64,000 nucleotides of DNA from Calditrichia bacterium (GTDB lineage Bacteria > Calditrichota > Calditrichia > RBG-13-44-9 > J075). The notes beneath the pieces were generated by a model. The model was not told the origin of the DNA, did not search any database, and saw only the letters and a list, made by a program, of their open reading frames with translations. The stretch covers positions 1 to 64,000 of the forward strand of contig JBOEGD010000030.1 of the NCBI GenBank assembly GCA_050633245.1, in the 5' to 3' direction. The first letter of the stretch is position 1, and the number at the start of each line of letters is the position of its first letter. Position numbers and translations under genes: made by a program. Shown here piece by piece: positions 5,730-53,358 of this stretch.

Positions 5730-5972
5730 AACAGGCGCAGTTTAGGATTTTATCAACAGGAGCAGTTTTGAAAACTGCTCCTGTTTTTGGAAAAGACGCG
5801 AAATTTTGAACTATTTTTTCTCAAAGCCATATTGGAGCATTGTCAGAATGGAGCAGTCTTGGGAGCTCGATAGTCTGTACTATATTATAGAAAAGACGCG
5901 AAATTTTGAACTATTTTTTCTCAAAGCCATATTGGAGCATTGTCAGAATGGAGCAGTCTTTATTCTAAAAAA
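5730..5972 (+). repeat. Modular repeat element, locus 1: half-site, 31-bp palindrome and a 71-bp direct repeat x2 containing the 26-bp core
   Basis: AACAGGAGCAGTTTT-G-AAAACTGCTCCTGTT at 5755-5785; 5790-5860 identical to 5890-5960; cores at 5833-5858 and 5933-5958. Confidence 0.92.
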
Positions 5973-6005
5973 TAAACAAAGTTTTGAAATCTTTTTATTT
6001 TTGCG

Positions 6006-6028
6006 AAATACCGCATATGGGGAATTGA
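6006..6028 (+). promoter_or_regulatory. Putative NarL/LuxR-type operator, copy 1
   Basis: AAATACCGCATATGGGGAATTGA, identical to 7629-7651; imperfect 7-2-7 inverted repeat 30 nt upstream of the response regulator. Confidence 0.6.
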
Positions 6029-6058
6029 ATTTCCGTTTTCGAAGTTGTATGTTTCTTT

Positions 6059-6688
6059 ATGTCTGATCCCGTGATATCCGTTGCAATCGTAGAAGACGAT
6101 CGCGAAATACGCGATCTACTTACGCTAATCATCGATAGCTCGCCAGGTTTTACCTGCAAGCAATCGTTCAATGATTGCGAAAGTGCTATTGAACCCATTC
6201 TGGCAGAAACACCGCAGGTTGTTTTGATGGATATCGACCTGCCGGGCATGTCAGGAATTAATGGCGTTGCAGCTCTCAAAGAAAAACTTCTGGCCACAGA
6301 TTTTATTATGCTAACTATCAAGGAAGATGACGATTCGATATTCGATTCTCTTTGCGCTGGTGCAACCGGCTATCTCCTGAAAGACACAGGACCAGCGGAT
6401 CTCTTACTGGCAATCCGTGAGGTGGTAGATGGCGGATCGCCAATGAGTGCAGGCATAGCACGCCGGGTAACCAACTCATTTAAGCGCTCAACCGATTCTC
6501 CCCTAACCACTCGAGAAACAGAAGTTTTAAATATGTTATGCGACGGGAAGAATTACAAAGAAATCGCCACTGACATGTTTATCAGCGGCGATACGGTGCG
6601 AGTGCACATTAAAAATATATATCGGAAGCTTCAGGTAAACTCCCGCGGCCAGGCGGTCAAAAAGGCAATCAAAGATCGCCTGGTTTAG
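6059..6688 (+). CDS. NarL/FixJ-family response regulator (REC + LuxR HTH)
   Basis: IVEDD, LMDIDLPGMSG, GATGYLLK, LTTRETEVL, TVRVHIKNIYRKL. Confidence 0.95.
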   Translation: MSDPVISVAIVEDDREIRDLLTLIIDSSPGFTCKQSFNDCESAIEPILAETPQVVLMDIDLPGMSGINGVAALKEKLLATDFIMLTIKEDDDSIFDSLCAGATGYLLKDTGPADLLLAIREVVDGGSPMSAGIARRVTNSFKRSTDSPLTTRETEVLNMLCDGKNYKEIATDMFISGDTVRVHIKNIYRKLQVNSRGQAVKKAIKDRLV

Positions 6689-7452
6689 CCCTTCAGGTTT
6701 TCTACTTTCATCTCAGCTTTTTTCCGTAATTCAATCGGTTTTTTACGCGACTTGCGTAATCGAATATTCAGCATTTCTACAAGAAGCGAGAACGCCATTG
6801 CAAAGTAGATGTAGCCTTTCGGCACATGCATTCCAAACCCTTCGGCAAAGAGCATTACACCGACCAAAATAAGAAAGCTTAACGCCAACATTTTAATGGT
6901 CGGGTGCTTCTCCACAAAATCACCTATCGCATTCGCACCCAACATCATTACGCCAACCGAGATCAAAATTGCAATTACCATAACAGAGATATGGTCGACC
7001 AAGCCAACCGCGGTAATAACAGAATCCAATGAGAATACCAGGTCGATCAAGGCAATTTGTACCAGCACACTTGCCATCGTCACTGTGCCACTACTACCAT
7101 GATGCCCTTCTTCGCCCTCAAGACTATTATGAATTTCATGGGTGCTCTTAGCCAGTAAAAATAAACCACCGACAATGAGAATCAAGTCTCTTCCGGATAT
7201 AGCTTTTCCCATGATCTCAAAAAATGGCTCAACCAGTCCCATTACCCATGATATTGCAAACAGCAACATAAGCCGAGTAAGCATTGCGAATCCAAGTCCG
7301 AGCATCCGTCCCTTGGCACGCTGCTCTTCAGGCAGTTTTCCAGACAAAATCGAGATAAAAATAATGTTATCAATACCAAGTACAATTTCCAAAGCTGTCA
7401 ATGTGGCCAATGCAATCCAGGCTTCGGGAGATGAAATCCACGAAAAGTCCAT
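6685..7452 (-). CDS. TerC family membrane protein
   Basis: LEIVLGIDNIIFI and DLVFSLDSVITAVG signatures. Confidence 0.93.
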   Translation of the reverse strand: MDFSWISSPEAWIALATLTALEIVLGIDNIIFISILSGKLPEEQRAKGRMLGLGFAMLTRLMLLFAISWVMGLVEPFFEIMGKAISGRDLILIVGGLFLLAKSTHEIHNSLEGEEGHHGSSGTVTMASVLVQIALIDLVFSLDSVITAVGLVDHISVMVIAILISVGVMMLGANAIGDFVEKHPTIKMLALSFLILVGVMLFAEGFGMHVPKGYIYFAMAFSLLVEMLNIRLRKSRKKPIELRKKAEMKVENLKG

Positions 7453-7628
7453 AGCATCCTCGTATGTTTTAGAATAGTCGTTTTAGATAAACAGTCATGC
7501 TTATGACCGGCACAAATGTATTAAGTAACACTTGAATTTTCAAATGTCCAAAGTTGAAAATCTGCTCCCCGGAACAAAACACAGCACCCAAACCACTGTT
7601 TTTAAAAGACGTAAGAACCGAAAATTAA

Positions 7629-7651
7629 AAATACCGCATATGGGGAATTGA
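7629..7651 (+). promoter_or_regulatory. Putative NarL/LuxR-type operator, copy 2
   Basis: Exact 23-bp match to 6006-6028, 72 nt upstream of the 7724 gene. Confidence 0.6.
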
Positions 7652-7723
7652 TTCAACCACTATACTCACACTACCTTTTTAAAGACCTCAATCCACAATT
7701 TCTATTAAAAAGGGAGACTCATA

Positions 7724-8602
7724 ATGAATTATCGCTACTATGCAATTTTTTTTGCAATCATATTATTTTCCACGTTCTCGGCTGCTCAAAATGAGATATT
7801 AAATTCAGGGTTTGAAAACTGGACAAATGGAGAGCCTGACAATTGGGTGACAACAAATATTCCCGGCTTGGTTACTACGATCTCAGAATCAAATGATGCC
7901 AACTCTGGAAACTCATCGCTAAAGGGTGAAATCGGAAGTTTCCAGGGTAATCCGTTCGGTCCGGCCATTCAAGCAAGTCAGGGGTTTGGAATACCCATTT
8001 TGAATATCACCCAGAACTATACCCAACTTACCGGCTACTATAAGGTTAATGTAACACCCGGAACAGTTGTCGTTGTAATATCGAACCTCTCGGATGCCAA
8101 TTTCGGACTCGTTGCAAGTATGATTGACACACTTCCGGTCTCGGCAACCAGCTGGCAGCAGTTTACTCTGGATTACGATTATTCCAATACGTCAGGGGAA
8201 CAGGCGATTACGGCGACGCTTCAAATTGCACTGGGATCGGATGGAGCAGGTTTTCAAATCGGCGATTTCTTCCTGCTGGATGACATTGCTCTGATCAATC
8301 AGGTTGGAATTGAGCCGATAGACAACGCAGGTGTTGCCACAGAGTTTCAGCTGAGTCAGAACTATCCGAATCCGTTTAACCCAACCACAAATATTCGCTT
8401 TTCTCTCGGCAACTCCGGACACGCTTCACTGATTGTATATGATCTGCTCGGCAAAGAAGTCGCGCGAATAGTCGACGAGCAGTTGGCAGCAGGAAGCTAC
8501 GTCGCAGATTGGAACGCAACATCGTTACCGAGTGGAACCTATTTTTATACGTTGACTGCCAATGGGCAACGACAAAGCCGCAAACTGATGTTATTAAAAT
8601 AA
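7724..8602 (+). CDS. Secreted protein with a carbohydrate-binding-like N-domain and a C-terminal secretion sorting (T9SS-A/FlgD-like) domain
   Basis: Signal peptide, NSGFENW, FQLSQNYPNPFNPTT...LPSGTYFY..RKLMLLK; SD GGGAG. Confidence 0.85.
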   Translation: MNYRYYAIFFAIILFSTFSAAQNEILNSGFENWTNGEPDNWVTTNIPGLVTTISESNDANSGNSSLKGEIGSFQGNPFGPAIQASQGFGIPILNITQNYTQLTGYYKVNVTPGTVVVVISNLSDANFGLVASMIDTLPVSATSWQQFTLDYDYSNTSGEQAITATLQIALGSDGAGFQIGDFFLLDDIALINQVGIEPIDNAGVATEFQLSQNYPNPFNPTTNIRFSLGNSGHASLIVYDLLGKEVARIVDEQLAAGSYVADWNATSLPSGTYFYTLTANGQRQSRKLMLLK

Positions 8603-8716
8603 ATGGGTAATCCCGGCGAAGTTAGAGGACAATTAACGGGCGTGCGAACCCTTCTGAAGACTCCGCCGGGAAAGCCTTTTCTTAACAAGTTTCAAAAGTC
8701 TAATTGAGGAGAAATC

Positions 8717-9163
8717 ATGAAAAAGTTTATGTTTCAGTTTGTCATTTTTACTTTAGCAGCTCTGCTATTCGCCGGCTGCTCATCCGATTCAACTGGTAGC
8801 AATGGGGATGTCGACGAGTTCAGCGACGTAGTGGGCACCTGGAACTGTACATCATTTGTCTATACCAGTGTTGCAAATTCCAGTCTAACGGATGATATTA
8901 AAACCTCGCAGGGTCTAAGCTATTCAATTACCATTCAGGAAAATGGTGCTTATACCATTACTGTTTCAGTTCAAGGGGTTCCACCACAAACAATAACCGG
9001 TCAAATGGCAACTGGTACAAATGGAGAGTTCTCAACCGGCGACCCGGACGTTCGCGTTACGCGTAGTGGAAATCAACTAATTTTTGATGACTCGAATGAA
9101 ACACATGATTTTGGATCAGGCTCCGAAGCAGCAACACTCAAAGTAATATACACAAAACAATAA
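8717..9163 (+). CDS. Lipoprotein, lipocalin-like beta-barrel
   Basis: Lipobox FAGC, VVGTW motif; SD GAGGAG. Confidence 0.75.
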   Translation: MKKFMFQFVIFTLAALLFAGCSSDSTGSNGDVDEFSDVVGTWNCTSFVYTSVANSSLTDDIKTSQGLSYSITIQENGAYTITVSVQGVPPQTITGQMATGTNGEFSTGDPDVRVTRSGNQLIFDDSNETHDFGSGSEAATLKVIYTKQ

Positions 9164-9174
9164 TCGAGCGTACG

Positions 9175-9531
9175 ATGTCTGAGCAAAAAAAACTACCAGT
9201 CAGCGGGCTAATCGCCCGCATTTTAGGTGGATTAAATGCTGGTCCACAAATCTTGTTCTTAATGCTAACGCTGGATAATCCGTTTGGCGGAGGCAACCCA
9301 CAGCGCGCCAAGTTTATGAGTGTTTGGTTACTTCTCGGGCTACTGGGTTATGTATTGGCATGGAAAAAACCGGCGTTTGGAGGCATAGCGATGGTATTCA
9401 GCGGAGTTGCTATTCTCGTGACTTATTTCATTACCGCAGACCCAGAAGCGCTTACCAGCACCCTCACTCCATTTTATCTTAACTTGCCGACCATTCTAAT
9501 TGGCGCATTATTCATCTACTCCTCCCGATAA
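9175..9531 (+). CDS. Small 4-TM membrane protein, function unknown
   Basis: Four hydrophobic segments; 11 nt after the previous gene. Confidence 0.7.
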   Translation: MSEQKKLPVSGLIARILGGLNAGPQILFLMLTLDNPFGGGNPQRAKFMSVWLLLGLLGYVLAWKKPAFGGIAMVFSGVAILVTYFITADPEALTSTLTPFYLNLPTILIGALFIYSSR

Positions 9532-9535
9532 CGAT

Positions 9536-9571
9536 TTACATTGGATAGCAGAATTCCGCTATTCAATGTAA
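9536..9571. other. 14-bp inverted repeat (terminator-like or operator)
   Basis: TTACATTGGATAGC-N8-GCTATTCAATGTAA with one G-U pair; no U-tract. Confidence 0.5.
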
Positions 9572-9618
9572 CATTCCCGATCAAAAAGCGTTATATTCTC
9601 GTGCTGGAGGAATAGAAC

Positions 9619-9954
9619 ATGCCAAAATCAAATGAGTTTGTTGACTATCTTTTAGATTTACTGGAACCGTTCGGAGCTGTTAGCGCCAAGTCGATGTTTG
9701 GTGGTTATGGTATCTATCGTGACGAGCTTATGTTTGGCCTGGTTGCCGATGATACGCTGTATTTAAAGGTGGATAAACAATCTATTCCAACTTTTGAGGC
9801 CGCGGGGAGTGAGCCCTTTGTTTATGTAAAGAATGGTAAGCCGATGCAGATGTCTTATTGGACATCCCCACCTGAAACACTTGAAAATCGAGATGACATG
9901 CTGCAATGGGCAGAACTTGCCTGGAACGCCGCGTTACGAGTTAAACGAAAATAA
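9619..9954 (+). CDS. TfoX/Sxy N-terminal domain protein
   Basis: KSMFGGYGIY, FGLVADDTLYLKVD, MSYW motifs; SD GGAGG. Confidence 0.9.
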   Translation: MPKSNEFVDYLLDLLEPFGAVSAKSMFGGYGIYRDELMFGLVADDTLYLKVDKQSIPTFEAAGSEPFVYVKNGKPMQMSYWTSPPETLENRDDMLQWAELAWNAALRVKRK

Positions 9955-10038
9955 ATCCGCGCCTGCTGAATACAACATCCGGAACAATACGCTTCTATAT
10001 AATATATATCTTTATGTACAGACAAACAGGAGAAAGCA

Positions 10039-12498
10039 ATGAACATATTTGCTGGTAGCTACGGCTACGCAACAAGTAGAGGGGGGATAATTGCAATACT
10101 CACACTTTTTGTCCTCACTTCCGGAATATTCGCAGACGAAAGTGGTAAGAAAACTGACTGGCCCGGCATGCGAGGGGAAAATAGCACCGGATCAGTTGAA
10201 GTAGGTGGAATTCTAAGCTCAGGCAAAAATGTTATGCTGAAGGAAGTTTGGAGACAACCACTTGGTTCTGGTTATTCTGCTATTTCGATTGCCCATAATC
10301 GCGCCGTCACAATGAATTCAGACAGTACATTTGATTATGTAACAGCTTTCGATGCCAAAAGCGGAAAGCCGCTGTGGAAATTTAACATCGACTCGACCTA
10401 CAAGGGACACGATGGATCTCACGATGGGCCGATCTCTACGCCTTATGTTGAGAAAAAAATGGTTTACGCGCTCGCTCCGCGTGGACGATTAGTTGCCCTG
10501 GATGCCAAATCCGGCAAGTTGAAGTGGGAAAAAAATGTTGCTACAGATTTGGGTGGTGAAAAGCCATGGTATGGTTTTTCCAGCTCTCCTATTGTTTATA
10601 AAGACATGTTGATTTTGGAAACCGGAGGTAAGGACGGTAATGCCGTAACGGCTTTTAACAAGAAGTCGGGCGAGATAGTTTGGACAGCCGGCACGGATAC
10701 CGTCACCTATCAGTCACCAATGATCGTTGACTATAACGACTCTCCAATTGTTCTGGCCACGGCTGATCATCGTCTTACCGGAATCAATCCAGATAATGGA
10801 GATATTGTTTGGGAAACACGTTACGGAGGTGATGGTTCTCCAATTGGCAGCGGGGCAACATTACCTGTAGCGATTGGCAAAAACACCTACATGCTCACGC
10901 ATACTCGTAATGAGTCTGTTGCACTAAAAATACGCCCAACGGAAGCTGGTGTAGATACCGCAGTTCTCTGGACGAATCGCAATGTACGCGGCACCTATAA
11001 TATCCCGGTTTATCATGAAGGACACTTGTACGGCTTTAGCAGTCGCTTTCTCACCTGTATCGATGCTAAAACCGGTGAGGCAAAATGGAAATCACGTAAG
11101 CCCGGCGATGGGTTTACAACAATTGTTGATGGTCACCTGATCATTGCAACGAAAAAAGGATCCGTTCATATTGGCAAAGCCAGTGCAGATGGCTTCACCG
11201 AATTGACCAGCATTAAGCCGTTCAACAACGATGCATGGTATCCGGCAAGCTTTGCCAATGGGAAGATCTACGTGCGCAGCATGCAGGAAATCGCCTGTCT
11301 TGAAATCGTTGAGGCAAAATCCAATGACAAGATGATGGCTACTGATGCCATGATACAAGACTCGGAATTTGGAAAGTTTATCGCAGGGCTCAGCAAAGCT
11401 GATAATAAGAGCGCTATGATTGACGCCTTTATCGCTAAGCAGAAATCCTTTCCGATTGTTGAAAAAGACAAAGTTCACTTTATCTATCGCGGCGAAGCAG
11501 AGGACGTTGCTGTTACCGGTGATCTGTTTGGAGGCAGAAATGAAGTTCCGATGCAGCGTGTTGTGGGAACAGATCTTTTCTATCGCACCAGCCCACTCGA
11601 ATCGAATGCACGCCTGGAATACGGTTATACATTGAACTTTGAGAAGCAGGTTGGCGATACGCTAAACGCTGCTCGTACAATCGCAACGCCACGTGGTCCA
11701 ACCTCCTGGTTTTCGATGCCCAACTGGAAAGAGCCGGCACATTTGGCTGCATTGGCAATGGCTGATACCGGATCTGTAGATACAATGCGATTTGAAGCAA
11801 CGGTCCCCGATACCGCAGAAGGCTGGACGACAAACCGCAGAGTTGATGTTTACCTGCCGAATGGATACGCAACATCTGACATGCGCTACCCGGTTGTGTA
11901 TGTGCATGATGGGGAAGCTGCTTTGAAACAAGGGATGCTAAAGCGCTCTTTAGATAACTTGATCGCTAAGAAGCAGATTGATCCGGTAATAGCAGTGTTT
12001 ATTTATCAGGGCGGAGAACGACCAAATCAGGAATACGGTCCGGGATTCATGGACAAATATGCAACGCTGCTTGCTGAGCATCTTGTTCCTCATATCGACA
12101 AAACGTATCGCACAGTAGCAAAGCCCGAGGCACGGTTAAGCTATAGCAACGGATTTTCAACCTCCGGTGGGCTTTATACGACGTTTAAAAATCCGCAGGT
12201 TTTTGGTAACCTGTCTATGCAGTCTGCATTTATCATGACCTATATTCAGGATGAGATGTTGCCGGTTGTGAAGAAGCAGGACGAGCATAAGGTGAAGATG
12301 TACGTAGATTGGGGTAAGTACGATCTGCGCGGCGCACAGGAACAGTGGAATACTAAACTCTTTACCAAACGAGTTTTAGACCACCTTGCTAATAAAGGCT
12401 ACACCAATGTTGCTACCAGTGAGCACCCGACCGGCTTTGGCTGGGGAAGCTGGCGCAACCGAAGTGACATGGTGCTGAAGCACTTCTTTGCGAGATAA
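10039..12498 (+). CDS. Secreted fusion: PQQ-like beta-propeller + Ig/CBM48-like domain + enterochelin esterase-like alpha/beta fold
   Basis: DWPGMRG, SSSPIV, DAKTGEAKW propeller repeats; VAVTGDL; RRVDVYLPNGY..RYPVVYVHDG. Confidence 0.8.
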   Translation: MNIFAGSYGYATSRGGIIAILTLFVLTSGIFADESGKKTDWPGMRGENSTGSVEVGGILSSGKNVMLKEVWRQPLGSGYSAISIAHNRAVTMNSDSTFDYVTAFDAKSGKPLWKFNIDSTYKGHDGSHDGPISTPYVEKKMVYALAPRGRLVALDAKSGKLKWEKNVATDLGGEKPWYGFSSSPIVYKDMLILETGGKDGNAVTAFNKKSGEIVWTAGTDTVTYQSPMIVDYNDSPIVLATADHRLTGINPDNGDIVWETRYGGDGSPIGSGATLPVAIGKNTYMLTHTRNESVALKIRPTEAGVDTAVLWTNRNVRGTYNIPVYHEGHLYGFSSRFLTCIDAKTGEAKWKSRKPGDGFTTIVDGHLIIATKKGSVHIGKASADGFTELTSIKPFNNDAWYPASFANGKIYVRSMQEIACLEIVEAKSNDKMMATDAMIQDSEFGKFIAGLSKADNKSAMIDAFIAKQKSFPIVEKDKVHFIYRGEAEDVAVTGDLFGGRNEVPMQRVVGTDLFYRTSPLESNARLEYGYTLNFEKQVGDTLNAARTIATPRGPTSWFSMPNWKEPAHLAALAMADTGSVDTMRFEATVPDTAEGWTTNRRVDVYLPNGYATSDMRYPVVYVHDGEAALKQGMLKRSLDNLIAKKQIDPVIAVFIYQGGERPNQEYGPGFMDKYATLLAEHLVPHIDKTYRTVAKPEARLSYSNGFSTSGGLYTTFKNPQVFGNLSMQSAFIMTYIQDEMLPVVKKQDEHKVKMYVDWGKYDLRGAQEQWNTKLFTKRVLDHLANKGYTNVATSEHPTGFGWGSWRNRSDMVLKHFFAR

Positions 12499-12507
12499 AT
12501 TCTTTGT

Positions 12508-12539
12508 CCGGAGCAGCTTAAGCTGCTCCGGTTTTTTTT
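12508..12539 (+). terminator. Rho-independent terminator
   Basis: CCGGAGCAGC-TTAA-GCTGCTCCGG followed by T8, 9 nt after the stop codon. Confidence 0.85.
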
Positions 12540-12599
12540 ACGTATTACCTAGATTTATTATCGAGATGGAATTTTATTAAAAATTCAAAATTTCGACGT

Positions 12600-12639
12600 T
12601 TTTTTAGAATAAAGACTGCTCCATTCTGACAATGCTCCA
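12600..12639 (-). repeat. Modular repeat element, locus 2 (core 12614-12639)
   Basis: Reverse complement is TGGAGCATTGTCAGAATGGAGCAGTCTTTATTCTAAAAAA, matching 5933-5972. Confidence 0.92.
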
Positions 12640-13462: not shown

Positions 13463-13587
13463 ATGGGTTTGTTGACAAAAGCGCTAATAAAAACGCTGAT
13501 ATTTCCTAAGAACACGTTAAAAATTACAGTCGGATTAAAAATTTTACCTTATTATTATAATACAAAGTAGTAGTACGAACTAAAAAC

Positions 13588-13615
13588 ACTGCTCCATTCT
13601 GACAATGCTCCAGTT
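13588..13615 (-). repeat. Modular repeat element, locus 3
   Basis: ACTGCTCCATTCTGACAATGCTCCAGTT, identical to 12615-12642. Confidence 0.9.
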
Positions 13616-13646
13616 GGTGGGCTGCTCAGTTGATTTTGGGAAAGCA

Positions 13647-14165
13647 ATGACAAAGAACGAACTCAGAGAAAACCTGACTGGTGGAGACCGACGCTCCGTG
13701 GGAGATGCCACACTTGTCGCCGAGGCAATTCTAAGGCATCCGGATAGTGCTAAAACGGTTGTGAGTTTTCTTTGGGAAGATGATGCTATTTTGCGCTCGC
13801 GTGCCGCCCATGCGTTAAAAACGACAACTCTGAATAATCCCCTGATCATTCAGCCATTTAAAAAAGAACTGATTCAAAAAATGAGTCCAATTGAACAATG
13901 GGAAGTTCGAGAGCAATTCTGTATAATTATTACCAAACTTGATCTGGAAAAGACCGAATACAAGAAGCTGATAGCCATTTTCCAAAACTATCTTTCAGAC
14001 AAAAGCAGCATTGTTCGTACCTGCGCAATGCAGGGAATGGCAGATCTCGCAGAGTCAAGTGAATCGATTAAGACAATGGTTCTGCCGATACTTATAGAAT
14101 TAACAGAAACCGGGTCCGCCGCAATGCGCGCCCGCGGCCGAAAGCTGCTAAATAAACTAAAGTAA
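13647..14165 (+). CDS. HEAT/armadillo repeat-like hypothetical protein
   Basis: GGDRRSVG, QWEVRE, DKSSIVRTCAMQGMADL, GSAAMRARGRK. The ORF-track start lies inside the repeat, so ATG 13647 is preferred. Confidence 0.7.
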   Translation: MTKNELRENLTGGDRRSVGDATLVAEAILRHPDSAKTVVSFLWEDDAILRSRAAHALKTTTLNNPLIIQPFKKELIQKMSPIEQWEVREQFCIIITKLDLEKTEYKKLIAIFQNYLSDKSSIVRTCAMQGMADLAESSESIKTMVLPILIELTETGSAAMRARGRKLLNKLK

Positions 14166-21224: not shown

Positions 21225-21389
21225 CAATGGTAAACGGTGAACGATGAACAAACACAAAAATTATCTAAAGTAGACGTTCTGTCTTCTGTTCACTGCTCTC
21301 TATTCTCTGCTCTCTATAGTTGAGCTTGCAAATAGAAATGCACTTATTTATGTTCATCGGAACACTGAATGATTACAAAGGAAAAAAAT

Positions 21390-27792: not shown

Positions 27793-27890
27793 GTGAAAAG
27801 TGAAAAGTGAAAAGTGAAAAGTGAAAAGGCAATAAGGCAATAAGGCAATAAGGCAATAAGGCAATAAGGCAATAAGGCAATAAGGCAATA
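27793..27890. repeat. Compound microsatellite (GTGAAAA)x5 + (GGCAATAA)x~8
   Basis: Units read directly. Confidence 0.95.
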
Positions 27891-28112
27891 TACTTCCTGT
27901 CTCCCACTTTGTGTTCTGCGTTCTGGTATAAAATTAACAGAGGTAATTACGTTTTGTCATAAGTCTGATATAACACTGTAACCCGGTACGACAAACTTCT
28001 TACAGATGAAAAGAAATACACTGTATTTTTTCATCAATCGACAGCCACCAAGCCACAAGAGCTAAAAAAGTGTAACTTTTAAATGACATTTCCTTAATTA
28101 TTAAATCAGGTC

Positions 28113-32228: not shown

Positions 32229-32699
32229 ATGCGCCAACAAACAATCGGAATGTTGTTTAAAACGCTGATTATCGCATTGTTGGGAATTTCCTTCAACGGC
32301 TGCGGCCTGTTTAACTCCAACGATCGTTCTGAATTAGATGAGCAGCTGGCCAAATGGCAATCGTTCAATCTATCTAATTACTCGTATGAATTTCGCGCCA
32401 GCTGTTTTTGTTTTCCAGAGTTCAACGAATGGGTTTCGGTTACCGTTAAAGACGACACTATTTCAAGCGTTACCATTCTCAGTACTACCGAGCCACCGCA
32501 GGAACTTCCACTAAACAATTGGTTTACAATTGACGATCTCTTCGAGACTGTTTCTACCGCTGTTGAAACTGCGGATGAGTTCGAGATTTCCTACAATGAT
32601 GAATATGGCTATCCGGAAGTAATTTCAGTAGACTATATCGAAGAAGCGGTAGACGATGAGGTGACGTATAACTCGATAAACCTTACAATTGATGAATGA
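32229..32699 (+). CDS. Lipoprotein (DUF6174-like)
   Basis: Lipobox FNGC, W...NYSY..SCFC, TIDDLF, YGYP, DDE; ATG 32229. Confidence 0.75.
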   Translation: MRQQTIGMLFKTLIIALLGISFNGCGLFNSNDRSELDEQLAKWQSFNLSNYSYEFRASCFCFPEFNEWVSVTVKDDTISSVTILSTTEPPQELPLNNWFTIDDLFETVSTAVETADEFEISYNDEYGYPEVISVDYIEEAVDDEVTYNSINLTIDE

Positions 32700-32727
32700 T
32701 GATTGATGAGGTATGATTGATTGTGTA

Positions 32728-33507
32728 TTAAGGAGTCCAAGCCTCTTCAAGCGTTTCGCGAAAAAGAAGATCTAGAACCTCGGTTGAGGGCGTATCGTTC
32801 CTTTGCACTGATTTAACAATATTCGAAAAATAGTCTATTTCCCGCTCAAGAAACCGGTTGAGAATCTCAATCTTCGGTTCCTTATCCATCTCCATACCAC
32901 CGCGCTTTCTTTCCAATAAGCGAAGAACCTCAGATTTAACTGCTAAATCGTTAAGCTGAGAGTTTATAAGCTTCTGAAACTCCATTGGTGCAATGGTATC
33001 GGTCTGTTCTATCCATTTGCAGGCAAGAATTGGCCTGAGAACATAAAAGTATTTTTTAACTTTTACCATATCAGCTTTCAGATACTCACGAAAGTTTCCA
33101 GACGCCATGTTTAGATAATGATGTAAGCACGATTTTGCGCTAAAGTAGTCTGCCGACAGTCTGCGGAGGCGTTCGGTAGTTGAGAATTGCTCCAGATAAA
33201 CCAAGGGGCTGCCCAGCCATTCAAGCAATGGAGGATTCGATTTCCTAAACAGCCGAAGTGCCTTTTGCAATTCCCAGCCGGCAAAGTCCAAATCGTTTGG
33301 CAACATAACCTCAATTGTATCGCGCTTATTATCAATAGAAAGATACCATTCTGGCTTATGAATGTAGACAAAACGTACATCCCAGTCGCTATCCTGCGAG
33401 GCAAATCCCCAAGCTCGACTTCCGGATTCAACGGCAAAAAGGACTTTAACATTATGTTCACATTCAAAGTTGCGCAATTCTGTGGTAATAAGATTTTGTA
33501 TATTCAT
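32728..33507 (-). CDS. Pol-beta superfamily nucleotidyltransferase (YcgL/RlaP-like)
   Basis: ESGSRAWGFASQDSDWDVRFVY, KSNPPLLEWLGSP, KKYFYVLRP. Confidence 0.88.
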   Translation of the reverse strand: MNIQNLITTELRNFECEHNVKVLFAVESGSRAWGFASQDSDWDVRFVYIHKPEWYLSIDNKRDTIEVMLPNDLDFAGWELQKALRLFRKSNPPLLEWLGSPLVYLEQFSTTERLRRLSADYFSAKSCLHHYLNMASGNFREYLKADMVKVKKYFYVLRPILACKWIEQTDTIAPMEFQKLINSQLNDLAVKSEVLRLLERKRGGMEMDKEPKIEILNRFLEREIDYFSNIVKSVQRNDTPSTEVLDLLFRETLEEAWTP

Positions 33508-38799: not shown

Positions 38800-41121
38800 A
38801 TGGCCTCAAAGCAGTCTGACAGTATCGACGCGCCGTTGGGTGACGATAAAAAACCCACCGGAAACGGGGTTTCCAAGGAACGTTTGGAAACCGCTCAGTT
38901 TGAAGAAGTAACCCCTCCCTTAACTATCGTAAAACGCGATGGCCGATCCGTCCCTTTCGACGTTTCCAGAATAGAGAAAGCAATTGACAGCTGCTTCAAA
39001 AGTTTTGGTCGTAAGCCCTCCACGCCAGTTTCTAAGATTGCCGAGCAGGTTGTGAACATTGTTGCGGTTAAATTTGACGAACCAACAGTCGAACAGGTCC
39101 AGGACATTGTAGAAATGGTTCTACAAGCCGCTGGAGAGTATGAAGCGGCGAAACACTATATCCTTTATCGCGCTGAGCAGTCTATAAAGCGCAAGGATCG
39201 ACCGGTTCCGGAAGATGTTCGCGAGGCATTTGAAGTCTCGGACATTTATTTTCCCACACAGCTTCAGAAATTTCAGTTTTATGACAAATATTCTCGTTTC
39301 AACTATGAGCTCGGTCGACGTGAGACATGGGTCGAAACGATTGATCGTGCTGTTGACTTTCTGAAAGAGCTTTCAGAGTTTCGATTGCCCGCATTAACTT
39401 ATGAACGCGTTCGTATGGGAATGTTGGAAATGCGCGCTATGTCTTCCATGCGTCTGCTCGCCATGGCTGGCTCCGCAGCACGACGCAATAATATTTGCAT
39501 ATACAACTGCTCTTATATGCCGGTAGATAGCCTGGACTCATTCGTAGAAGCGCTGATTATCTCCATGTGTGGTTGTGGTGTCGGTTATTCCGTCGAAAGC
39601 AAGTACATCGAGAAATTCCCTCGTATTCGCAGACAAACCAATGCCGCTCCGGTTCGCTATGTTGTAGAGGATAGTGCCGAAGGCTGGGCAGATGCACTTC
39701 GCGTCGGTTTGCAAATCTGGATGGATGGTGGCGATGTTCAGTATGATTATTCTCAAATTCGCCCGGCTGGCGCACCGCTTCGTATTAAAGGCGGACGTGC
39801 TTCCGGTCCTGAGCCGCTACGCAAGATGCTGGATTTCTCCCGTGGCCGTATTCTGGCACGTCAGGGTGGTTTCCTGCGCTCGCTTGATGCACACGACATG
39901 ATGTGTGCCGTTGGTAATGCCGCCGTATCCGGAGGCGTTCGCCGCACGGCAATGATTTCTCTCTTCGACATCGATGATATCGAAATGCGCAACTGTAAGA
40001 ATGGTGACTTCGAGCGTTTAAACAGCCAACGCTGGAATGCCAACAACTCTGCCGTCTGGCCAAATCGCCCGCTGTCTCAGGCGGAAGTATCTCGCTTCGT
40101 ACTACAGATGGATGAGTCTGGACGTGGAGAGCCGGGCATCTTCAATCGCCAGGCTGCAATTCAATCGCGCCCGGAACGACGACTGGAAGCAGAATTCGGC
40201 ACAAACCCATGTGGCGAAATCATTCTGCGTCCTTATGAATTCTGTAATCTATCTATCGCCATTGCTCGCGAAGAAGATACGCTCGAGACGCTATCTGAAA
40301 AGGTTGAACTGGCAACGATTATCGGAACCATTCAGTCGATGGCAACACACTTCCCGGGACTGCGTAAGCAGTGGCGCGAAAACTGCGAAGAAGAACGCTT
40401 GTTGGGCGTAGACGTAACCGGACAGCTGGACAGTAAAGCTGCAATGGATCCTGAAGTTCAGCGCAAGCTGCGTCAGGTAGCCGTTGAAACAAACGAGCGT
40501 ATTTCCGGCATGCTGAATATTCCGCAATCTGCTTCCGTTACCTGCGTAAAACCATCAGGGAACTCTTCACAGCTATTCAACTGTGCACCGGGAATTCACG
40601 CACGCTGGTCGAAGTACTATGTTCGCAACGTTCGCGTAAGCTCTCATACACCGTTCTTTAAAGTTCTGCGAACCGCAGGCGTTCCGATGGATCCGGAAAA
40701 TGGTCAAATGCCGGAAACAGCAGAGACTTGGGTTATTCACTTTCCGGTGAAGGCACCTGAAGGCTCCATTACGCGTAAAGAACGCAGCGCAATTCAGCAA
40801 TGTGATTATTGGTTGCAGAATAAAACCGAATGGACAGAGCACAATCCCAGCGTAACGATTACGTATCAGGAAAGTGAAGTGATTGACCTGATTAAGTGGA
40901 TTTGGTCAAACCAGGATAAGATTGGCGGCATGGCCTTCTTACCGGCCTTCGATGCGATGTACGATCAGATGCCTTATGAAGAGATCACTGAAGAAGAGTA
41001 TAAGAAGCTGGCCTCTCAGTTCCCGAATATCGACTTCTCGAAGCTGTATCGCTATGAGGAAGAAGATTACACCACTGCCGCTCAGGAATTGGCCTGCCTG
41101 GCTGGAAACTGCGACATCTAA
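38800..41121 (+). CDS. nrdJ: Class II adenosylcobalamin-dependent ribonucleotide reductase, monomeric RTPR-type, with N-terminal ATP-cone
   Basis: IVKRDGRSVPFD ATP-cone; RRETW, YNCSY, GGRASGP, TNPCGEI, TCVKPSG, C-terminal CLAGNC; SD GGAGGAG. Confidence 0.92.
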   Translation: MASKQSDSIDAPLGDDKKPTGNGVSKERLETAQFEEVTPPLTIVKRDGRSVPFDVSRIEKAIDSCFKSFGRKPSTPVSKIAEQVVNIVAVKFDEPTVEQVQDIVEMVLQAAGEYEAAKHYILYRAEQSIKRKDRPVPEDVREAFEVSDIYFPTQLQKFQFYDKYSRFNYELGRRETWVETIDRAVDFLKELSEFRLPALTYERVRMGMLEMRAMSSMRLLAMAGSAARRNNICIYNCSYMPVDSLDSFVEALIISMCGCGVGYSVESKYIEKFPRIRRQTNAAPVRYVVEDSAEGWADALRVGLQIWMDGGDVQYDYSQIRPAGAPLRIKGGRASGPEPLRKMLDFSRGRILARQGGFLRSLDAHDMMCAVGNAAVSGGVRRTAMISLFDIDDIEMRNCKNGDFERLNSQRWNANNSAVWPNRPLSQAEVSRFVLQMDESGRGEPGIFNRQAAIQSRPERRLEAEFGTNPCGEIILRPYEFCNLSIAIAREEDTLETLSEKVELATIIGTIQSMATHFPGLRKQWRENCEEERLLGVDVTGQLDSKAAMDPEVQRKLRQVAVETNERISGMLNIPQSASVTCVKPSGNSSQLFNCAPGIHARWSKYYVRNVRVSSHTPFFKVLRTAGVPMDPENGQMPETAETWVIHFPVKAPEGSITRKERSAIQQCDYWLQNKTEWTEHNPSVTITYQESEVIDLIKWIWSNQDKIGGMAFLPAFDAMYDQMPYEEITEEEYKKLASQFPNIDFSKLYRYEEEDYTTAAQELACLAGNCDI

Positions 41122-43868: not shown

Positions 43869-43933
43869 ATTGATGAATGATGATTGATGAATGATAATTG
43901 AACAATGAAAATGGACATTGGACATTGGACAAT
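43869..43933. repeat. Degenerate heptamer repeats (TGATGAW)n then (GGACAWT)x3
   Basis: Read directly; the 22-mer ATTGATGAATGATGATTGATGA is also at 32688-32709. Confidence 0.75.
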
Positions 43934-48719: not shown

Positions 48720-48720
48720 T

Positions 48721-49716
48721 TTAATTGGTTGATTTTAGGCGCCAATAAATAGCTGTAATACTGCTTCCGGCAGCTAGAGTCAGGCTGGTATCGGTAATAG
48801 TTTCATCAAGCATTAAATCGTAAAAAGAAAGTTTCCCTAGTTCACTCCAGCAAAAGTATCTTCCATCCGGTGAAACTGCAAGAGCACTTTCCGCAGAAGC
48901 AAGCGAAGTAAGGCCCCGATTTGACATCCCGCTAAAATCAATTCTTCGCACCCCGCTCGCGTTGCTGGAAAGAACATCACCGTCAACAAGAAAGTATAGC
49001 GGTCCGCTTGGCAGATCTGGGAAAAATGCCGGGTTGATAGCATCATAAACACCACCACTCGTTGAAATATACTTACCTGTTGGGGAAAAGCTGTGAACAA
49101 CTAACTCAATCGGGGAAATTTGGAATTCATTACCAGAACTGAGAGACTTGCTAAAAAGGCCATCATCTTGTGTCCAAACGAGTTGATTTCCCTGTGTACT
49201 AAACAATGGTTGTCGTGAATTCTTGTTGCCGTCACCCGCTATAATAGAAAAGTCGCTATTCACAATGTCGAGCAATCCGATACGAGACGTGCTATCTGTT
49301 CGCGCTGTAAAGGCGACAAGCGTTCCTGCGGCATTAAATGTCAGGCGATCGACAATTTTATACGGAGATATATAATCGTTCGTTCTCCCATCCGACAAGT
49401 TTTCCACACGAATTGTAGAGTCGTTAATCGTATAGGCCGACCGCTGTGCATCAAACGAGATAACAGGTTCAGCGGGAGGGATAGCGGAGGCTGCAATGAT
49501 TTCACCACTCCAATTGCCGACGTCAAGACGCTGCACTTCTGTCGGATTGTCAATAACGGCAAAAACCAAACCTGGTAAAGCTGGTCGGGAGTTACCTTCT
49601 CCCATCCCACTTCTACCAGACCCCGATGGCCCAGAGGAGCTGGAACAAGACCAGAGGCTGAAGACTGCAGCAAGTAAAAGCATGTACAAAAGTCGGCTCA
49701 TCAGCGAATTTCTCAT
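48721..49716 (-). CDS. TolB-like beta-propeller lipoprotein
   Basis: Lipobox LWSC, FSPTGKY and VSPDGRY repeats. Confidence 0.7.
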   Translation of the reverse strand: MRNSLMSRLLYMLLLAAVFSLWSCSSSSGPSGSGRSGMGEGNSRPALPGLVFAVIDNPTEVQRLDVGNWSGEIIAASAIPPAEPVISFDAQRSAYTINDSTIRVENLSDGRTNDYISPYKIVDRLTFNAAGTLVAFTARTDSTSRIGLLDIVNSDFSIIAGDGNKNSRQPLFSTQGNQLVWTQDDGLFSKSLSSGNEFQISPIELVVHSFSPTGKYISTSGGVYDAINPAFFPDLPSGPLYFLVDGDVLSSNASGVRRIDFSGMSNRGLTSLASAESALAVSPDGRYFCWSELGKLSFYDLMLDETITDTSLTLAAGSSITAIYWRLKSTN

Positions 49717-49780
49717 TATTTTCTGTTCACGATTAAAGTTGAATATCGCTTCAAATCATTCTGAATGCCAGATAAATTGC

Positions 49781-51280
49781 CTACTCATTGCGACGATAGA
49801 CCCGATATCCCAACCTCTCTTCCCGTAGCACATAGTTCCTTTGAACAAGTTCTGAAACGACGTTCCGTTGTGTTAATGGAATCCATTCTTCGTATTCACG
49901 AAAGTTGGGGATCAATACCAGGTAAGGCGGGTTCTCCGACAGCTCTTTGCTAAGAGCTCCGACATTGCGGGCTTGTCCACTAAAGTAGCGTGTTGGGGAC
50001 TTTCGCATAGCGTAGGCTTGAACCTGAGCGCCATACCCGGCAATATATACCGTTTGCTCAGCAGAAGTATTTGCATAAACCCATTCTCCCAAATAGCGCC
50101 GCGCAATATCGATTGGCTTTGAATGGGGAACCGGAATAATAGTATACCCTGCAGGATGCCCTCGAATAGCCATATCCAATGCCCAAACGCTTTGCCGAGG
50201 AAGTTCGAGAGCAATAACAAGCACTAGTACAATTAATGCATTAGAGACCTTGTCCATTGCCCAACGTTTACTGGCTATCCTCTCCGTTAGCGCCAGGCCA
50301 ATTCCGGCACTCACAGAAAGCGCCGGTAACCAGGTTCGCAATTGGTACGTTGCGTAATTTCCCGCAATATTCAACGCTATAAATTCCAGTGCCACCCAGC
50401 TACAGAGAAAATAAAGCATGAGTTTCTGCTTCAAAGCTCCAGCGTATACCAAAAGTGCTGCAATGCCGATTATAAATACTACCAGTCGCACGTTTTGCGG
50501 CATGAAGCGGGAATAGAAGATCGTCCAGCGCTCCTGCAAGCTGTTTGTCTTTCCGATAGTTGATGCAGTAAGCAATTGATCGGCTATCTCGGATAATTCT
50601 GCTCCCTGTAGAAACGGAATCAAGAGAAGTAGCAGCGGTATAGCTACCGCACTGCCGAAGATTAACAAAGCTGCCTGCAATCGGTTTTTAGAAATGGACA
50701 AAAAAACGGCAACGAAGAGCACAAGCAGCCCGAAAACGGCGGACTGTTTAAATGCCAAAGCCAAGCCGATTATCAACCCTGCCGCGAGGAATGTTCTCGG
50801 AGAAACAACCCCCTTATTGGCCCCTCTAAGAAGAAGGTACACCGCGAGCGTGCTGAAAAGAACAACGAAAGACTCCGTCTGCGCTGTAAAACGCCACCCG
50901 GCGGCGACCCAGCTTACCGAACAAGCATATAATAAAAAGCTAATTAGCCCAGCTCTCTCATCATGTATCAATCGCGCTATTCTATAGACCAGAAGGCCCG
51001 CTAACGCCAATGCCAGAGAACCAATAATTCGCGGAAGAATAAATCCCGGACCAACCAGAAATGCACATAAGCCAAAGAGCAGAAAGATGGCAGGCTGCTT
51101 ATTATCTACCGCCTCTTTATAGAGGACCAAATCGCCCTCAAGCCACTGCTGCCCCATGTAGGTCCAATGCGCTTCATCGTAAGACAACCCAATATGTCCG
51201 TTGGCAAATGATAGAAGAAGCAAGTAGAGAAAAAGCAACACGGTGAGTATTGGGATGCGGTAGGGAATGGCATTTTTCAT
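49781..51280 (-). CDS. Glycosyltransferase family 39 (ArnT/PMT-like, GT-C)
   Basis: YDEAHW, LYKEAVDNKQP, TESF, LAFKQ; many TM segments. Confidence 0.82.
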   Translation of the reverse strand: MKNAIPYRIPILTVLLFLYLLLLSFANGHIGLSYDEAHWTYMGQQWLEGDLVLYKEAVDNKQPAIFLLFGLCAFLVGPGFILPRIIGSLALALAGLLVYRIARLIHDERAGLISFLLYACSVSWVAAGWRFTAQTESFVVLFSTLAVYLLLRGANKGVVSPRTFLAAGLIIGLALAFKQSAVFGLLVLFVAVFLSISKNRLQAALLIFGSAVAIPLLLLLIPFLQGAELSEIADQLLTASTIGKTNSLQERWTIFYSRFMPQNVRLVVFIIGIAALLVYAGALKQKLMLYFLCSWVALEFIALNIAGNYATYQLRTWLPALSVSAGIGLALTERIASKRWAMDKVSNALIVLVLVIALELPRQSVWALDMAIRGHPAGYTIIPVPHSKPIDIARRYLGEWVYANTSAEQTVYIAGYGAQVQAYAMRKSPTRYFSGQARNVGALSKELSENPPYLVLIPNFREYEEWIPLTQRNVVSELVQRNYVLREERLGYRVYRRNE

Positions 51281-51304
51281 ACAATTTTGGCCATTTTTTT
51301 AACG

Positions 51305-51475
51305 CCAAACTGGAGCATTGTTAGAATGGAGCAGTCTTGGGAGTTAAAGCGTTCGTACTTTATTAGAAAAAAAGAAGCAAATTTTGAATTGTTTTTTTTC
51401 TCTGCCCAAACTGGAGCATTGTTAGAATGGAGCAGTCTTAATTAGAAAAAAGATCTAAAATTTTGGACTTTTTTA
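51305..51475 (+). repeat. Modular repeat element, locus 4: tandem doublet with 101-bp spacing
   Basis: CCAAACTGGAGCATTGTTAGAATGGAGCAGTCTT twice (cores 51311-51336 and 51412-51437); linker aligns with 5861-5932. Confidence 0.92.
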
Positions 51476-51499
51476 ATTTTGCCTTTTTTAGATAAAAAG

Positions 51500-53008
51500 T
51501 TAAAATCCCTCGATTTCTGGTTGACGATAACGCAGCCAACGACTTTGCAAAACACGCAGCTCATAGGGTTTCCAAAACCAGTTTAGCTTATATCGCAAGT
51601 TCGATAACATTCGCATCGTTTTACGCTGGAAATCCGTCAGTTTAATATCTGAGGCAGTAGGATAATATGCATTCAGCACTGTCTCAAAATTCATGATCTT
51701 GTCGACCATTTCCGCAGTAAGCCAAGGAGTCATTGGGTTCTTACGCAAGTCAAAGTTCTCCCAGCGTGGATTAATCCAATCATCCAGCGTTTGTGGAAAC
51801 TCGAATCCGCTATCTTTAACGCTTTCGTAAAGTTCAGAGCCTTCGGTTGGAACCGGACTGTACACATATATTATTATCTCCGTTGCCGGATTTATTTCCT
51901 TTACTTCCTTAATGAAATTGATATCTTCATCAATTTGTTTCATTACCTGTTCCGGGGTGTCCCCCGGGGTACCTAAAACGAAAGAATATTCTGGTACAAT
52001 ATCAAACTTTGCCATTCGTGCTGCGAAGTCTTTAATCTGCTGTCCGGTTTGCGTTCCGCCTTTATTCATACGCTTAAGCACTTCATCGCTACCTGTTTCC
52101 GCACCAAAAAAGATCATTTTACAGCCAGCGTCACGCAGAATGGACAAAGATTCATCAGAGTATTTGCTCATTGTATCGATACGAGCTTCGCCCCACCAAA
52201 CCATATTTTCTGGTTGAATGAGCTTTGAAAAAGCTACAGTGCGCTTTTCTGATACAAAGAAATTGTTATCGTGAAACTCAATAGCATTCGCACCATAGTT
52301 GTCTTTTAAGAACTTTGCGTCATTATAAATACTCTCTGCGGACTTGCCACGCCAGCGAGCGTTGTAAATAGGAACAACTGCACAGAATGAACAGGTGAAC
52401 GGACAACCAACGCTGGAATGATAGGCCGCCGTCTTACTCCCCAAATAGGTATTGCCCAAATAGTCGTTCATGGAATATGTGGAATGCAGTTTTTTATAGG
52501 GTAAACGAGGCAACTTGTCCTGATCCAGCAGCGGCTCTTTGGGCGTACGGTGAAGGGTTCCATCTTTCAAAAAGATCAAATTCTGAATGTCTGCCGGGGA
52601 TTTACCTGCATCCAAGACTTCCAAGAGCGCGGGAAATGTAACGTCACCCGGGCCAGCGACCACGTAGTCGACATACCTGGATTCCAATACAACCTTACAT
52701 TGATTAGTAGCAAAATACCCGCCCCAAATAATAGTAATGTCCGGATAAGCTTGCCTAATGCGCTTTGTAAATGGAATCGCTTCTTTCAGCTGTTGTGCCG
52801 GCATCGTAGTACAGGCAAAGTATCGAAACTTACCGCTATCCAAATAAGTTGTCAGCGTTTGCCAGGGATCTGTTTCACGATTTCCATCGACAAAAACATA
52901 TTCGAAGCGGCCTTCCAATGCAGCTCCCAGTTGCAAAATAGTATTAGGAATTCGATATTTTGAATTTGCGCTGCGCGGATTAAAAAGGATTACACCGTTA
53001 TCAGACAT
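51500..53008 (-). CDS. B12-binding domain radical SAM protein
   Basis: IIWGG B12-binding domain, GCPFTCSFC (CxxxCxxC), FHDNNF, FFGAETG. Confidence 0.92.
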   Translation of the reverse strand: MSDNGVILFNPRSANSKYRIPNTILQLGAALEGRFEYVFVDGNRETDPWQTLTTYLDSGKFRYFACTTMPAQQLKEAIPFTKRIRQAYPDITIIWGGYFATNQCKVVLESRYVDYVVAGPGDVTFPALLEVLDAGKSPADIQNLIFLKDGTLHRTPKEPLLDQDKLPRLPYKKLHSTYSMNDYLGNTYLGSKTAAYHSSVGCPFTCSFCAVVPIYNARWRGKSAESIYNDAKFLKDNYGANAIEFHDNNFFVSEKRTVAFSKLIQPENMVWWGEARIDTMSKYSDESLSILRDAGCKMIFFGAETGSDEVLKRMNKGGTQTGQQIKDFAARMAKFDIVPEYSFVLGTPGDTPEQVMKQIDEDINFIKEVKEINPATEIIIYVYSPVPTEGSELYESVKDSGFEFPQTLDDWINPRWENFDLRKNPMTPWLTAEMVDKIMNFETVLNAYYPTASDIKLTDFQRKTMRMLSNLRYKLNWFWKPYELRVLQSRWLRYRQPEIEGF

Positions 53009-53183
53009 AGCTACTCATCCAATGCTAAAAATTTATGACAAAGTACATTACAGCTCTAATATTACAGATAACTGTTAAAAGAATAGTAGGATATATTTCA
53101 AAATATTCAAAACAAGGTCAATTTTAGTTGACGTTCAAAAAGAATCCGTTCTCAAAATTGCCATATTTTGATCAAATTCCTAT

Positions 53184-53358
53184 AAGACTGCTCCATTCTA
53201 ACAATGCTCCAATGTTTTTCGGATTTCAGCGACAACATGCAAACAAGCAGATTTCACCAAGTATTGATCAGTTTGGAACGGACTGGAATAGTTTTGCTCA
53301 GAGTGGATCAGTTTTAAAAACTGCTCCACTTTCCAAGAACCTATAAAACTGCGCCGTT
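53184..53358 (-). repeat. Modular repeat element, locus 5: core, palindrome and half-site
   Basis: Core 53186-53211; AGTGGATCAGTTTT-A-AAAACTGCTCCACT at 53302-53330; AAAACTGCGCC at 53345-53355. Same order as locus 1, on the opposite strand. Confidence 0.88.

Follow-up and report, generated by a model that had tools for sequence, protein, structure and literature searches.

The repeat considered here lies in a stretch of 64,000 nucleotides from a Calditrichia bacterium (hereafter the window, G000:C30:1-64000; the G000 assembly comprises 6.35 Mb in 59 contigs) and is built around a 26-bp core, TGGAGCATTGTYAGAATGGAGCAGTC. We consider it probable, at roughly two chances in three, that this core is a lineage-specific offshoot of a repeat population of the repetitive extragenic palindrome (REP) type with its hairpin-forming doublets (REPINs), and that it is likely copied by P0001, a distant, single-copy REP-associated tyrosine transposase (RAYT). 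This reading is carried by the sequence kinship of the core with a hairpin family of the same genome, the family membership and fold of P0001, the adjacency of a core array to its gene in two lineages, the same combination of gene and hairpin in other phyla, and the conservation of the repeats in position. An earlier, sequence-only reading of the window had described the family as one that it did not recognise. The kind of element is in fact already known; new within the searched collections are its sequence family and the direct-doublet form. It is a variant in that the GTAG foot of known REPs is absent, in that its dominant and most conserved form, arranged in units of about 100 nt, is a direct doublet that does not fold, and in that the RAYT clade concerned has no clear tie to REPs in the accessible part of the survey by Quentin et al. 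2018 (PMC6006769).

The core repeat and its kinship with a hairpin family

A motif search retrieved the core seven times in the window (Table 1), all at the places given by the sequence-only reading apart from a shift of one nucleotide, the copy placed at 13588 starting at 13587. Zero matches were present in 100 dinucleotide shuffles of the window, and none is expected by chance. The core consists of two 16-nt arms placed head to tail, AGAC-TGGAGCA-TTGTC and AGAA-TGGAGCA-GTCTT, and contains the TGGAGCA direct repeat at 16-bp spacing as well as the CATT-N5-AATG element described before. The other parts named by the sequence-only reading were likewise found: a AAATTTTGAA-like box at 5801, 5901, 5979, 12584(-), 13535(-), 51379 and 51458, and, at loci 1 and 5, the half-site GGCGCAGTTT and the palindrome GGAGCAGTTTT-N-AAAACTGCTCC, which stand in one shared order relative to the core. 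That the copies are always intergenic holds with respect to the long open reading frames (ORFs) of the window, none of which overlaps a core, but not with respect to a short ORF (5806-6066, 86 amino acids) that overlaps core copies, nor to the ORF 13605-14165, which at its proposed start shares 8 nt with the locus-3 core.

The motif is not limited to the window. A scan of G000 yielded 52 copies at up to three mismatches (19 exact relative to the C-variant, 21 with one mismatch, seven with two and five with three), and every one of them falls outside crude ORFs, which make up 87% of the genome. The copies form 38 arrays that are bunched on few contigs (six in 124 kb of C5, six in the first 90 kb of C30, four in 52 kb of C44), while six contigs longer than 250 kb hold none. 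The density in the window had been thought possibly typical; with about 0.5 copies per 64 kb as the genomic average it is not, the window being enriched about 13-fold. Two forms of the core can be told apart by what follows them, namely TTGGGAGCT..GTACTATATTAGAAAAAAGAC-N4-AAATTTTGAA in the 'long' form and TTTATTAGAAAAAA-N6-AAATTTTGAA, an A/T-rich tail, in the 'short' form. Tandems in G000 have a period of about 100 nt with the long form first, and the cores within an array all share one orientation. Two contig ends, C31:69897-69921 and C20:338409-338434, lie at or near core copies, and a single locus of a relative (L020) matches both; the assembly therefore probably breaks at the core repeat, and the two ends are probably neighbours.

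The kinship of the core emerges from the most abundant words of the genome. Its most frequent non-tandem 12-mer, TGGAGCAGTTTT (122 copies), and its top non-tandem 16-mer, AGACTGGAGCAGTTTT (49 copies), are both part of a hairpin, termed P, of the sequence AGACTGGAGCAGTTTT-N-AAAACTGCTCCAGTCT, that is AGAC-TGGAGCA-GTTTT-N-AAAAC-TGCTCCA-GTCT. In the ranking of 16-mers, those of the core, with 25-27 copies each, come next after the hairpin arm. The second core half, AGAATGGAGCAGTCTT, equals the arm with two mismatches and contains the GGAGCAGTCTT of a hairpin variant with a GTCTT loop, and the sub-motif GGAGCAGT pointed out by the sequence-only reading is the arm of this REP-type hairpin family. 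With the GTCTT/AAGAC variant included, P is present at 65 loci at up to two mismatches. Two of these lie inside crude ORFs and 63 outside; 34 are located within 30 nt of a stop codon, 15 at 31-100 nt, eight further away, and six face gene starts only; the usual place of P is 3-30 nt past a stop codon. At many loci one arm and its spacer recur in tandem, giving one to three additional copies. The hairpin folds strongly as DNA (z -7.5), and its stem is preserved by paired changes (GTTTT/AAAAC versus GTCTT/AAGAC; GTAGCAG../..CTGCTAC). Core and hairpin (52/52 and 63/65 outside ORFs) are thus over-represented extragenic short repeats, as REPs are; a folding inverted doublet, as in REPINs, is found in P and not in the core. 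The foot of the hairpin in G000 is AGAC/GTCT in place of a 5' GT[AG]G tetranucleotide, and the same goes for 34 of the 80 homologue loci described below.

The RAYT-type protein P0001 and its homologues

A search for homologues of another RAYT of the genome (see below) returned P0001 as a weak second match in G000. Its gene (C26:97044-97664, 206 amino acids) occurs once in the genome, outside the window, and is the ORF beside the core array C26:96763-97011: 33 nt separate its ATG from a long-form core, and a second core follows about 220 nt further upstream (about 255 nt from the gene). A core array does lie near a Y1/RAYT gene, a situation that the sequence-only reading had proposed to look for, albeit on another contig. 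At most 76 of the 4748 crude ORFs (1.6%) flank an array, and a chance adjacency is therefore unlikely. A relative has a P0001-type gene and an array in the same layout (locus L005).

P0001 matches the full NCBIfam model REP_Tyr_transpos (NF047646) with an E value of 1.4e-11, a match that falls short of the curated cut-off, and Pfam Y1_Tnp with an E value of 0.002. Among its 3302 homologues some were named RayT by their source, and the motifs H-F-H and Y-I-H-x-N are invariant across 30 aligned members. A profile of the family matches 4ER8 (E 1.5e-5). The AlphaFold model of P0001 (pLDDT 90.8) has chain A of the same entry, E. coli TnpA-REP bound to a REP hairpin, as its top structural match (E 9e-8), with the transposases of IS608, ISDra2 and IS200 behind. 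Motifs, profile and model thus agree on an HUH protein with a catalytic tyrosine and the TnpA-REP fold, and the gene is that of a single-copy RAYT flanked by repeats, on one side.

The other RAYT, encoded at C20:295493-296053 (positions 1369-1929 of L001), is canonical (194 bits against NF047646) and is the sole gene of the genome called by Pfam Y1_Tnp. It was rejected as the partner of the repeats: no GGAGCAGT motif is found within 1.5 kb, it carries a different palindrome, GCGTGGGTTATAACCCACGC, with five loci in the genome (one of them in C30 at 144265-144332), and homologues 51-54% identical to it occur in two relatives that do not possess the repeats. The window itself contains no transposase of the Y1/RAYT type, just as the sequence-only reading had it. 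An Xer-like tyrosine recombinase (integrase) gene is present at 54623-55519, about 1.3 kb from locus 5, and shows no visible tie to the repeats; the proposal that these might be recombination sites found no link to a recombinase.

The design of gene plus hairpin was followed through 80 loci with P0001 homologues from named genomes of several phyla, 22 of which were also inspected by eye. A palindrome with a perfect stem of at least 10 bp is present in a flank of 61 of the 80 loci and in both flanks of 30, and the design A[AG]A[CT]-N-T[TC]T..A[GA]A-N-[AG]T[CT]T fits 34 of them. Hairpins of this design, for example AGACCTTCCAGGTTTTTAAAACCTGGAAGGTCT (Methylobacter) and AGACCTGACAGGTTTTGGAAACCTGTCAGGTCT (Marithrix), have the foot and the loop side of P and differ from it in the central 7-mer. 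They are multi-copy, with 19 loci in the Methylobacter genome and four and two in two others. In a sibling genus within the window's own family the hairpin AGACCTCAAAGGTTTT-N-AAAACCTTTGAGGTCT is present at 80, 67 and 60 loci in three genomes, one of which has a P0001-type gene with that hairpin on both sides. Locus L160 (G010:C3:40522-41081), from a sibling genus, matches the P0001-type gene in two overlapping pieces, with a direct REP doublet at 40703-40729 inside the gene, and looks like a repeat inserted within a transposase gene.

Persistence, proposed mechanism and rival explanations

The core was found in none of 40 relatives, hairpin P in none of 20, and plasmid and phage collections gave no match; an exact-pattern scan of 185,579 species genomes (one per species, a set that possibly does not include the window's own genome) gave no locus. 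Outside the assembly, the core does turn up in three sources. Two sequencing runs contain a strain that shows 462 differences over 6687 nt (about 93% identity) and whose contigs start or stop within cores, those of loci 1, 2 and 3. Long metagenome contigs hold 38 core loci, 33 once near-identical pairs are merged, from a relative whose flanking genes are 65-81% identical to those of G000. In the search for empty sites that the sequence-only reading had proposed, 21 loci had flank matches on both sides, and the G000 site contained a core in 16 cases, only P in five, and was empty in none. For eight more loci a single flank passed the filter: in four cases a G000 core is found within 700 nt, and in the other four the BLAST pieces extend across core-bearing positions of G000. 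No flank match in G000 was obtained for L018, L023 and L036. All five window loci have counterparts in the relative (L028, L030, L034, which matches locus 4, and L033). Copy number often differs at orthologous sites, these differences being the only possible trace of mobilisation seen: at locus 1, G000 has P and two copies in tandem, the relative two copies 170 nt apart and no P, and at locus 3 one copy in G000 faces two. Where sites with a core face sites with P only, the alignments are heavily gapped.

In the mechanism that we propose, the basic unit is the 16-nt arm AGAC-TGGAGCA-GTTTT, an inverted pair of which gives hairpin P and a direct pair the core. The core is housed in modular units of about 100 nt, long ones with the linker and short ones with the A/T-rich tail ending in AAATTTTGAA. 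P0001, as an enzyme of the HUH/Y1 RAYT family, would bind, cut and rejoin the arms as single-stranded DNA and so lay copies at new intergenic sites; tandem units and extra arms could then arise by slippage or unequal recombination, and slow turnover would leave the arrays at the same sites over long divergence. That P0001 moves these repeats, and any effect they may have on host gene expression, is what we infer rather than observe.

Much of this picture has precedents. P. fluorescens SBW25 has REPINs as well as REP singlets, clusters next to RAYT genes, and tandem arrays in which the REPs share one orientation and are set apart by fixed spacers (112 and 72 bp), as described in the accessible part of PMC3116915 (Bertels & Rainey 2011); RAYTs are typically single-copy and vertically inherited according to that of PMC5581495 (Bertels et al. 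2017). The repeats studied here resemble this system in their over-represented extragenic 16-mers, in inverted doublets that form hairpins, in the occurrence of singlets and tandem clusters with a common orientation, in a single-copy RAYT beside a cluster and in persistence with vertical descent. Unlike in SBW25, the GTAG foot is absent, numbers are modest at 52 cores and 65 hairpins, and the form beside the RAYT is the most invariant one, a non-folding direct doublet with a 16-nt period in units of about 100 nt. With the E. coli REPs and bacterial interspersed mosaic elements (BIMEs) and their TnpA-REP they share, as far as the available portion of PMC3479197 goes, the intergenic, modular mosaics of REP units and linkers, and 4ER8 is the best fold match of P0001; on the other side, P0001 has only 16% identity to 4ER8 in the structural alignment, and there is no GTAG guide. 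The REPs of an E. coli BIME alternate in orientation and are separated by set linker motifs. Cores within arrays, unlike these, are all direct.

By motif, not by a tree, P0001 looks most like TnpA-Y1 subclass 2.1 of Quentin et al. 2018, defined in the accessible part of that survey by NH[YF]H, FQ and Y[IV]HLNP (PMC6006769): it has NHFH, F-E at the W-Q position and YIHLNP. For this subclass the same part of the survey reports no REP-like sequences, in contrast to the palindromes flanking P0001 homologues here. The AGACC..GGTTTT design did not appear among the eight passages returned by a motif search of the supplement text of PMC6006769, nor in parts 1 and 6 of its Table S1. The known REP classes have GTAG or CGTC tags and RAYT genes flanked by repeats (Di Nocera et al. 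2013, accessible part of PMC3733652). Short palindromic intergenic repeats flanking RAYT genes are thus a common trait, while the AGAC/GTCT foot differs from both tags; the strings GTCT and AGAC are absent from the main text of that paper.

Several observations weigh against the derivation from a REP/RAYT system. The link between hairpin and RAYT is not strict: P0001-type matches are found in only five of 40 relatives, and the sibling-genus genomes with 67 and 60 hairpins (assemblies 97% and 88% complete) gave no match to the P0001 query. The repeats occur only on the 5' side of P0001, with none in about 700 nt downstream, and the adjacency concerns one gene in two related lineages, with a probability of about 2-3% of arising by chance. 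The solved RAYT-REP recognition involves a hairpin with a 5' GTAG foot (4ER8; accessible part of PMC6006769), which neither the core nor P possesses. The core does not form a stable hairpin; the earlier statement that it is not a palindrome is correct in effect, since four copies with their flanks fold as DNA no better than shuffles (z -0.4 to +0.1). A hairpin reading of the core was also rejected, as an 8+4-bp stem with a GAG/GAG internal loop allowed by the CCAGAC flank does no better than shuffles, and inspection of the copies revealed no covariation of the flank variants with position 26. Direct doublets at the 16-nt period are rare or absent in other genomes, with three and one in two sibling-genus genomes and zero in the Methylobacter genome; the direct doublet of the core thus amounts to a rare by-product that has expanded locally. 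Neither insertion nor excision of a copy was observed. Finally, the core is identical across lineages with 20-35% gene divergence while the linkers drift, an invariance that also fits selection for a host function.

There are two other explanations that we regard as unlikely, to about the same degree. According to one, the core arrays are cis-regulatory cassettes, either operators of a global regulon or portable promoters, with a transcription factor reading the TGGAGCA direct repeat. Cores are indeed exact at orthologous sites while the flanks drift, and of the 37 arrays that have an ORF on either side, 34 border on one gene start or more, but the flanking genes are functionally mixed (65 proteins in one set and 14 in another), and the orientation of the copies is inconsistent (for 24 copies the two adjacent genes are on the other strand, 14 are co-directional, nine divergent, four convergent); neither coherent targets nor a fixed position and orientation relative to gene starts, as expected of a regulon operator, were found. 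Although the long linker offers TTGGGA-16/17-TATATT (9/12 match), similar to the genome's tRNA promoters cTTGACA-N17-TATATT, and the T-variant core TGTTAGAAT was flagged at locus 4 as TAGAAT with an upstream TG, promoter-like and terminator-like matches are no commoner at arrays than in shuffles, and the majority variant in G000 reads CAGAAT and so lacks the first T of the -10 hexamer. That the core is made of REP arms and adjoins a RAYT gene also speaks against a cassette of this kind. The other explanation accepts the REP origin but not the role of the RAYT: selection would keep the doublet because some other protein of the host binds it, one associated with the nucleoid or with termination, or because it acts as an RNA element at 3' ends or between cistrons. 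Its non-folding, invariant core, the many arrays between co-directional genes and the P hairpins that hug stop codons would suit this idea; no candidate binding protein was found, RNA structure of the arrays is weak and uneven (over 14 tandem arrays, z averages -1.4 on the forward and -1.9 on the reverse strand), and the differences in copy number at orthologous sites are those expected of a repeat that turns over.

It is highly improbable that each long-plus-short tandem is a small-RNA gene with a promoter in the long linker (TTGGGA-N16-TATATT at locus 1), a body of about 70 nt and a terminator formed by the second core and its U-rich tail. The long-then-short order is constant in G000 tandems and holds for most of those in the relative, several of which are long-long, and orientation is free relative to neighbouring genes; the second core, on the other hand, does not fold, the tail TTTATTC is poor as a U-tract, the arrays gave no call of a terminator-like site, and the tail box is found again behind the last core. 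The search for a catalogued family suggested by the sequence-only reading gave nothing at gathering score in the window with Rfam 15, and at E values up to 1 only weak hairpin noise of at most about 25 bits. An assembly artefact, or a sequence restricted to the G000 assembly, is already refuted: several contigs do end in or near cores (C31:69897, C20:338409), but long, independent metagenome contigs and contigs of other runs carry these cores as well. Among the candidates rejected outright, a miniature inverted-repeat transposable element (MITE) of a DDE transposon does not agree with array ends that are direct repeats without terminal inverted repeats (target-site duplications were not systematically searched), and a mini-element derived from IS200/IS605 (PATE) needs subterminal hairpins at both ends, whereas the cores at both tandem ends do not fold. 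A small ORF from the ATG of the core varies in frame and length between copies, as judged by eye, and sigma-54, extracytoplasmic function (ECF) and Bacteroidetes-type promoters did not fit in a by-eye comparison. Of the proposal in the sequence-only reading that the family is REP/BIME- or MITE-like and spread in trans by a RAYT or an insertion sequence, the MITE half finds no support, given the direct repeats, while the REP/RAYT half stands through the hairpin arm GGAGCAGT, the RAYT gene next to an array and the same hairpin design beside its homologues.

The REP/RAYT origin that we favour would place such a system in a little-studied uncultured lineage and suggests a widespread RAYT clade with a GTAG-less hairpin design of its own. 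With a constant foot (AGAC) and loop side (GTTTT) and a changing central 7-mer, these hairpins would amount to a natural experiment in the co-evolution of enzyme and repeat. The core is unrecognisable as a hairpin and yet identical over 20-35% gene divergence, and it is therefore a clean test case for REP derivatives gaining host functions. For annotation it matters that such repeats break assemblies and fill gaps that can be mistaken for promoters or small RNAs. A bolder and rather doubtful extension would be that AGAC-N7-GTTTT..AAAAC-N7-GTCT hairpins constitute an uncatalogued GTAG-less REP superfamily in several phyla, served by the RAYT clade surveyed as REP-less, and that the direct doublet has here been co-opted as a binding site for a protein, the RAYT or a host factor, under purifying selection at fixed intergenic positions, where it may influence neighbouring transcription.

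Features of the window

Table 1. Repeat-related features in the window (positions in nucleotides from its first base)
Feature	Position	Strand	Remarks
Two 25-nt direct repeats (arm + spacer)	5716..5765	+	Repeat family D8, 88% identity; the first bears half-site GGCGCAGTTT in degenerate form (5734-5743), the second continues into the hairpin
REP hairpin P GGAGCAGTTTTGAAAACTGCTCC, then TGTTTTTGG	5759..5781	.	Exact palindrome; DNA fold -14.9 kcal/mol, z -7.5; 106 nt after histidine-kinase gene
Core, long form, then linker TTGGGAGCT..GTACTATATTATAGAAAAGACGCGAAATTTTGAA	5833..5858	+	TTGGGA-16-TATATT flagged, 9/12 promoter-like match
Linker of ~100-nt tandem unit	5859..5932	+	Repeat family D3; AAATTTTGAA box at 5901-5910
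Core, short form (5933-5958), with tail TTTATTCTAAAAAATAAACAAAGTTTTGAAATC	5933..5995	+	Repeat family D5
Terminator-like hairpin CCGGAGCAGCTTAAGCTGCTCCGG + T8	12508..12531	.	GGAGCAG arms as in the REP hairpin, but CTTAAG loop
Core, short form (12614-12639), with tail and box (12584-12593)	12575..12639	-	17 nt past the stop of a GDSL-lipase gene
Core (1 mismatch), degenerate long-form linker	13587..13612	-	Upstream of GDSL-lipase gene; orthologous site in relative (L030) has two copies
Tandem array: long-form core (51311-51336), linker, short-form core (51412-51437), tail	51311..51470	+	Between radical-SAM gene end and PMT_2 gene start, antisense to both
Single core	53186..53211	-	178 nt upstream of radical-SAM gene
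REP hairpin (53305-53327, 1 mismatch), degenerate extra arms (53280-53295, 53300-53315), half-site GGCGCAGTTT (53346-53355)	53280..53360	-	

Two further kinds of repeat were encountered in the window. An exact 23-nt repeat, AAATACCGCATATGGGGAATTGA, is located at 6006-6028 and 7629-7651, ahead of the genes for a LuxR-type response regulator (6059) and for a protein with a type IX secretion system (T9SS) tail (7724). It has no further copies in the genome at up to four mismatches and a near-identical copy at the orthologous place in the relative (L028), and is possibly an operator for the two-component system next to it. Short tandem repeats of 7-8 nt, (CACTTTT)n, (AAGGCAAT)n, ATTGATGA-like and GGTGAAC-like, lie between genes at 1-83, 21229-21252, 27810-27897, 32688-32734, 43869-43915, 62747-62770 and 63775-63798, and their units rank among the commonest 12-mers of the genome.

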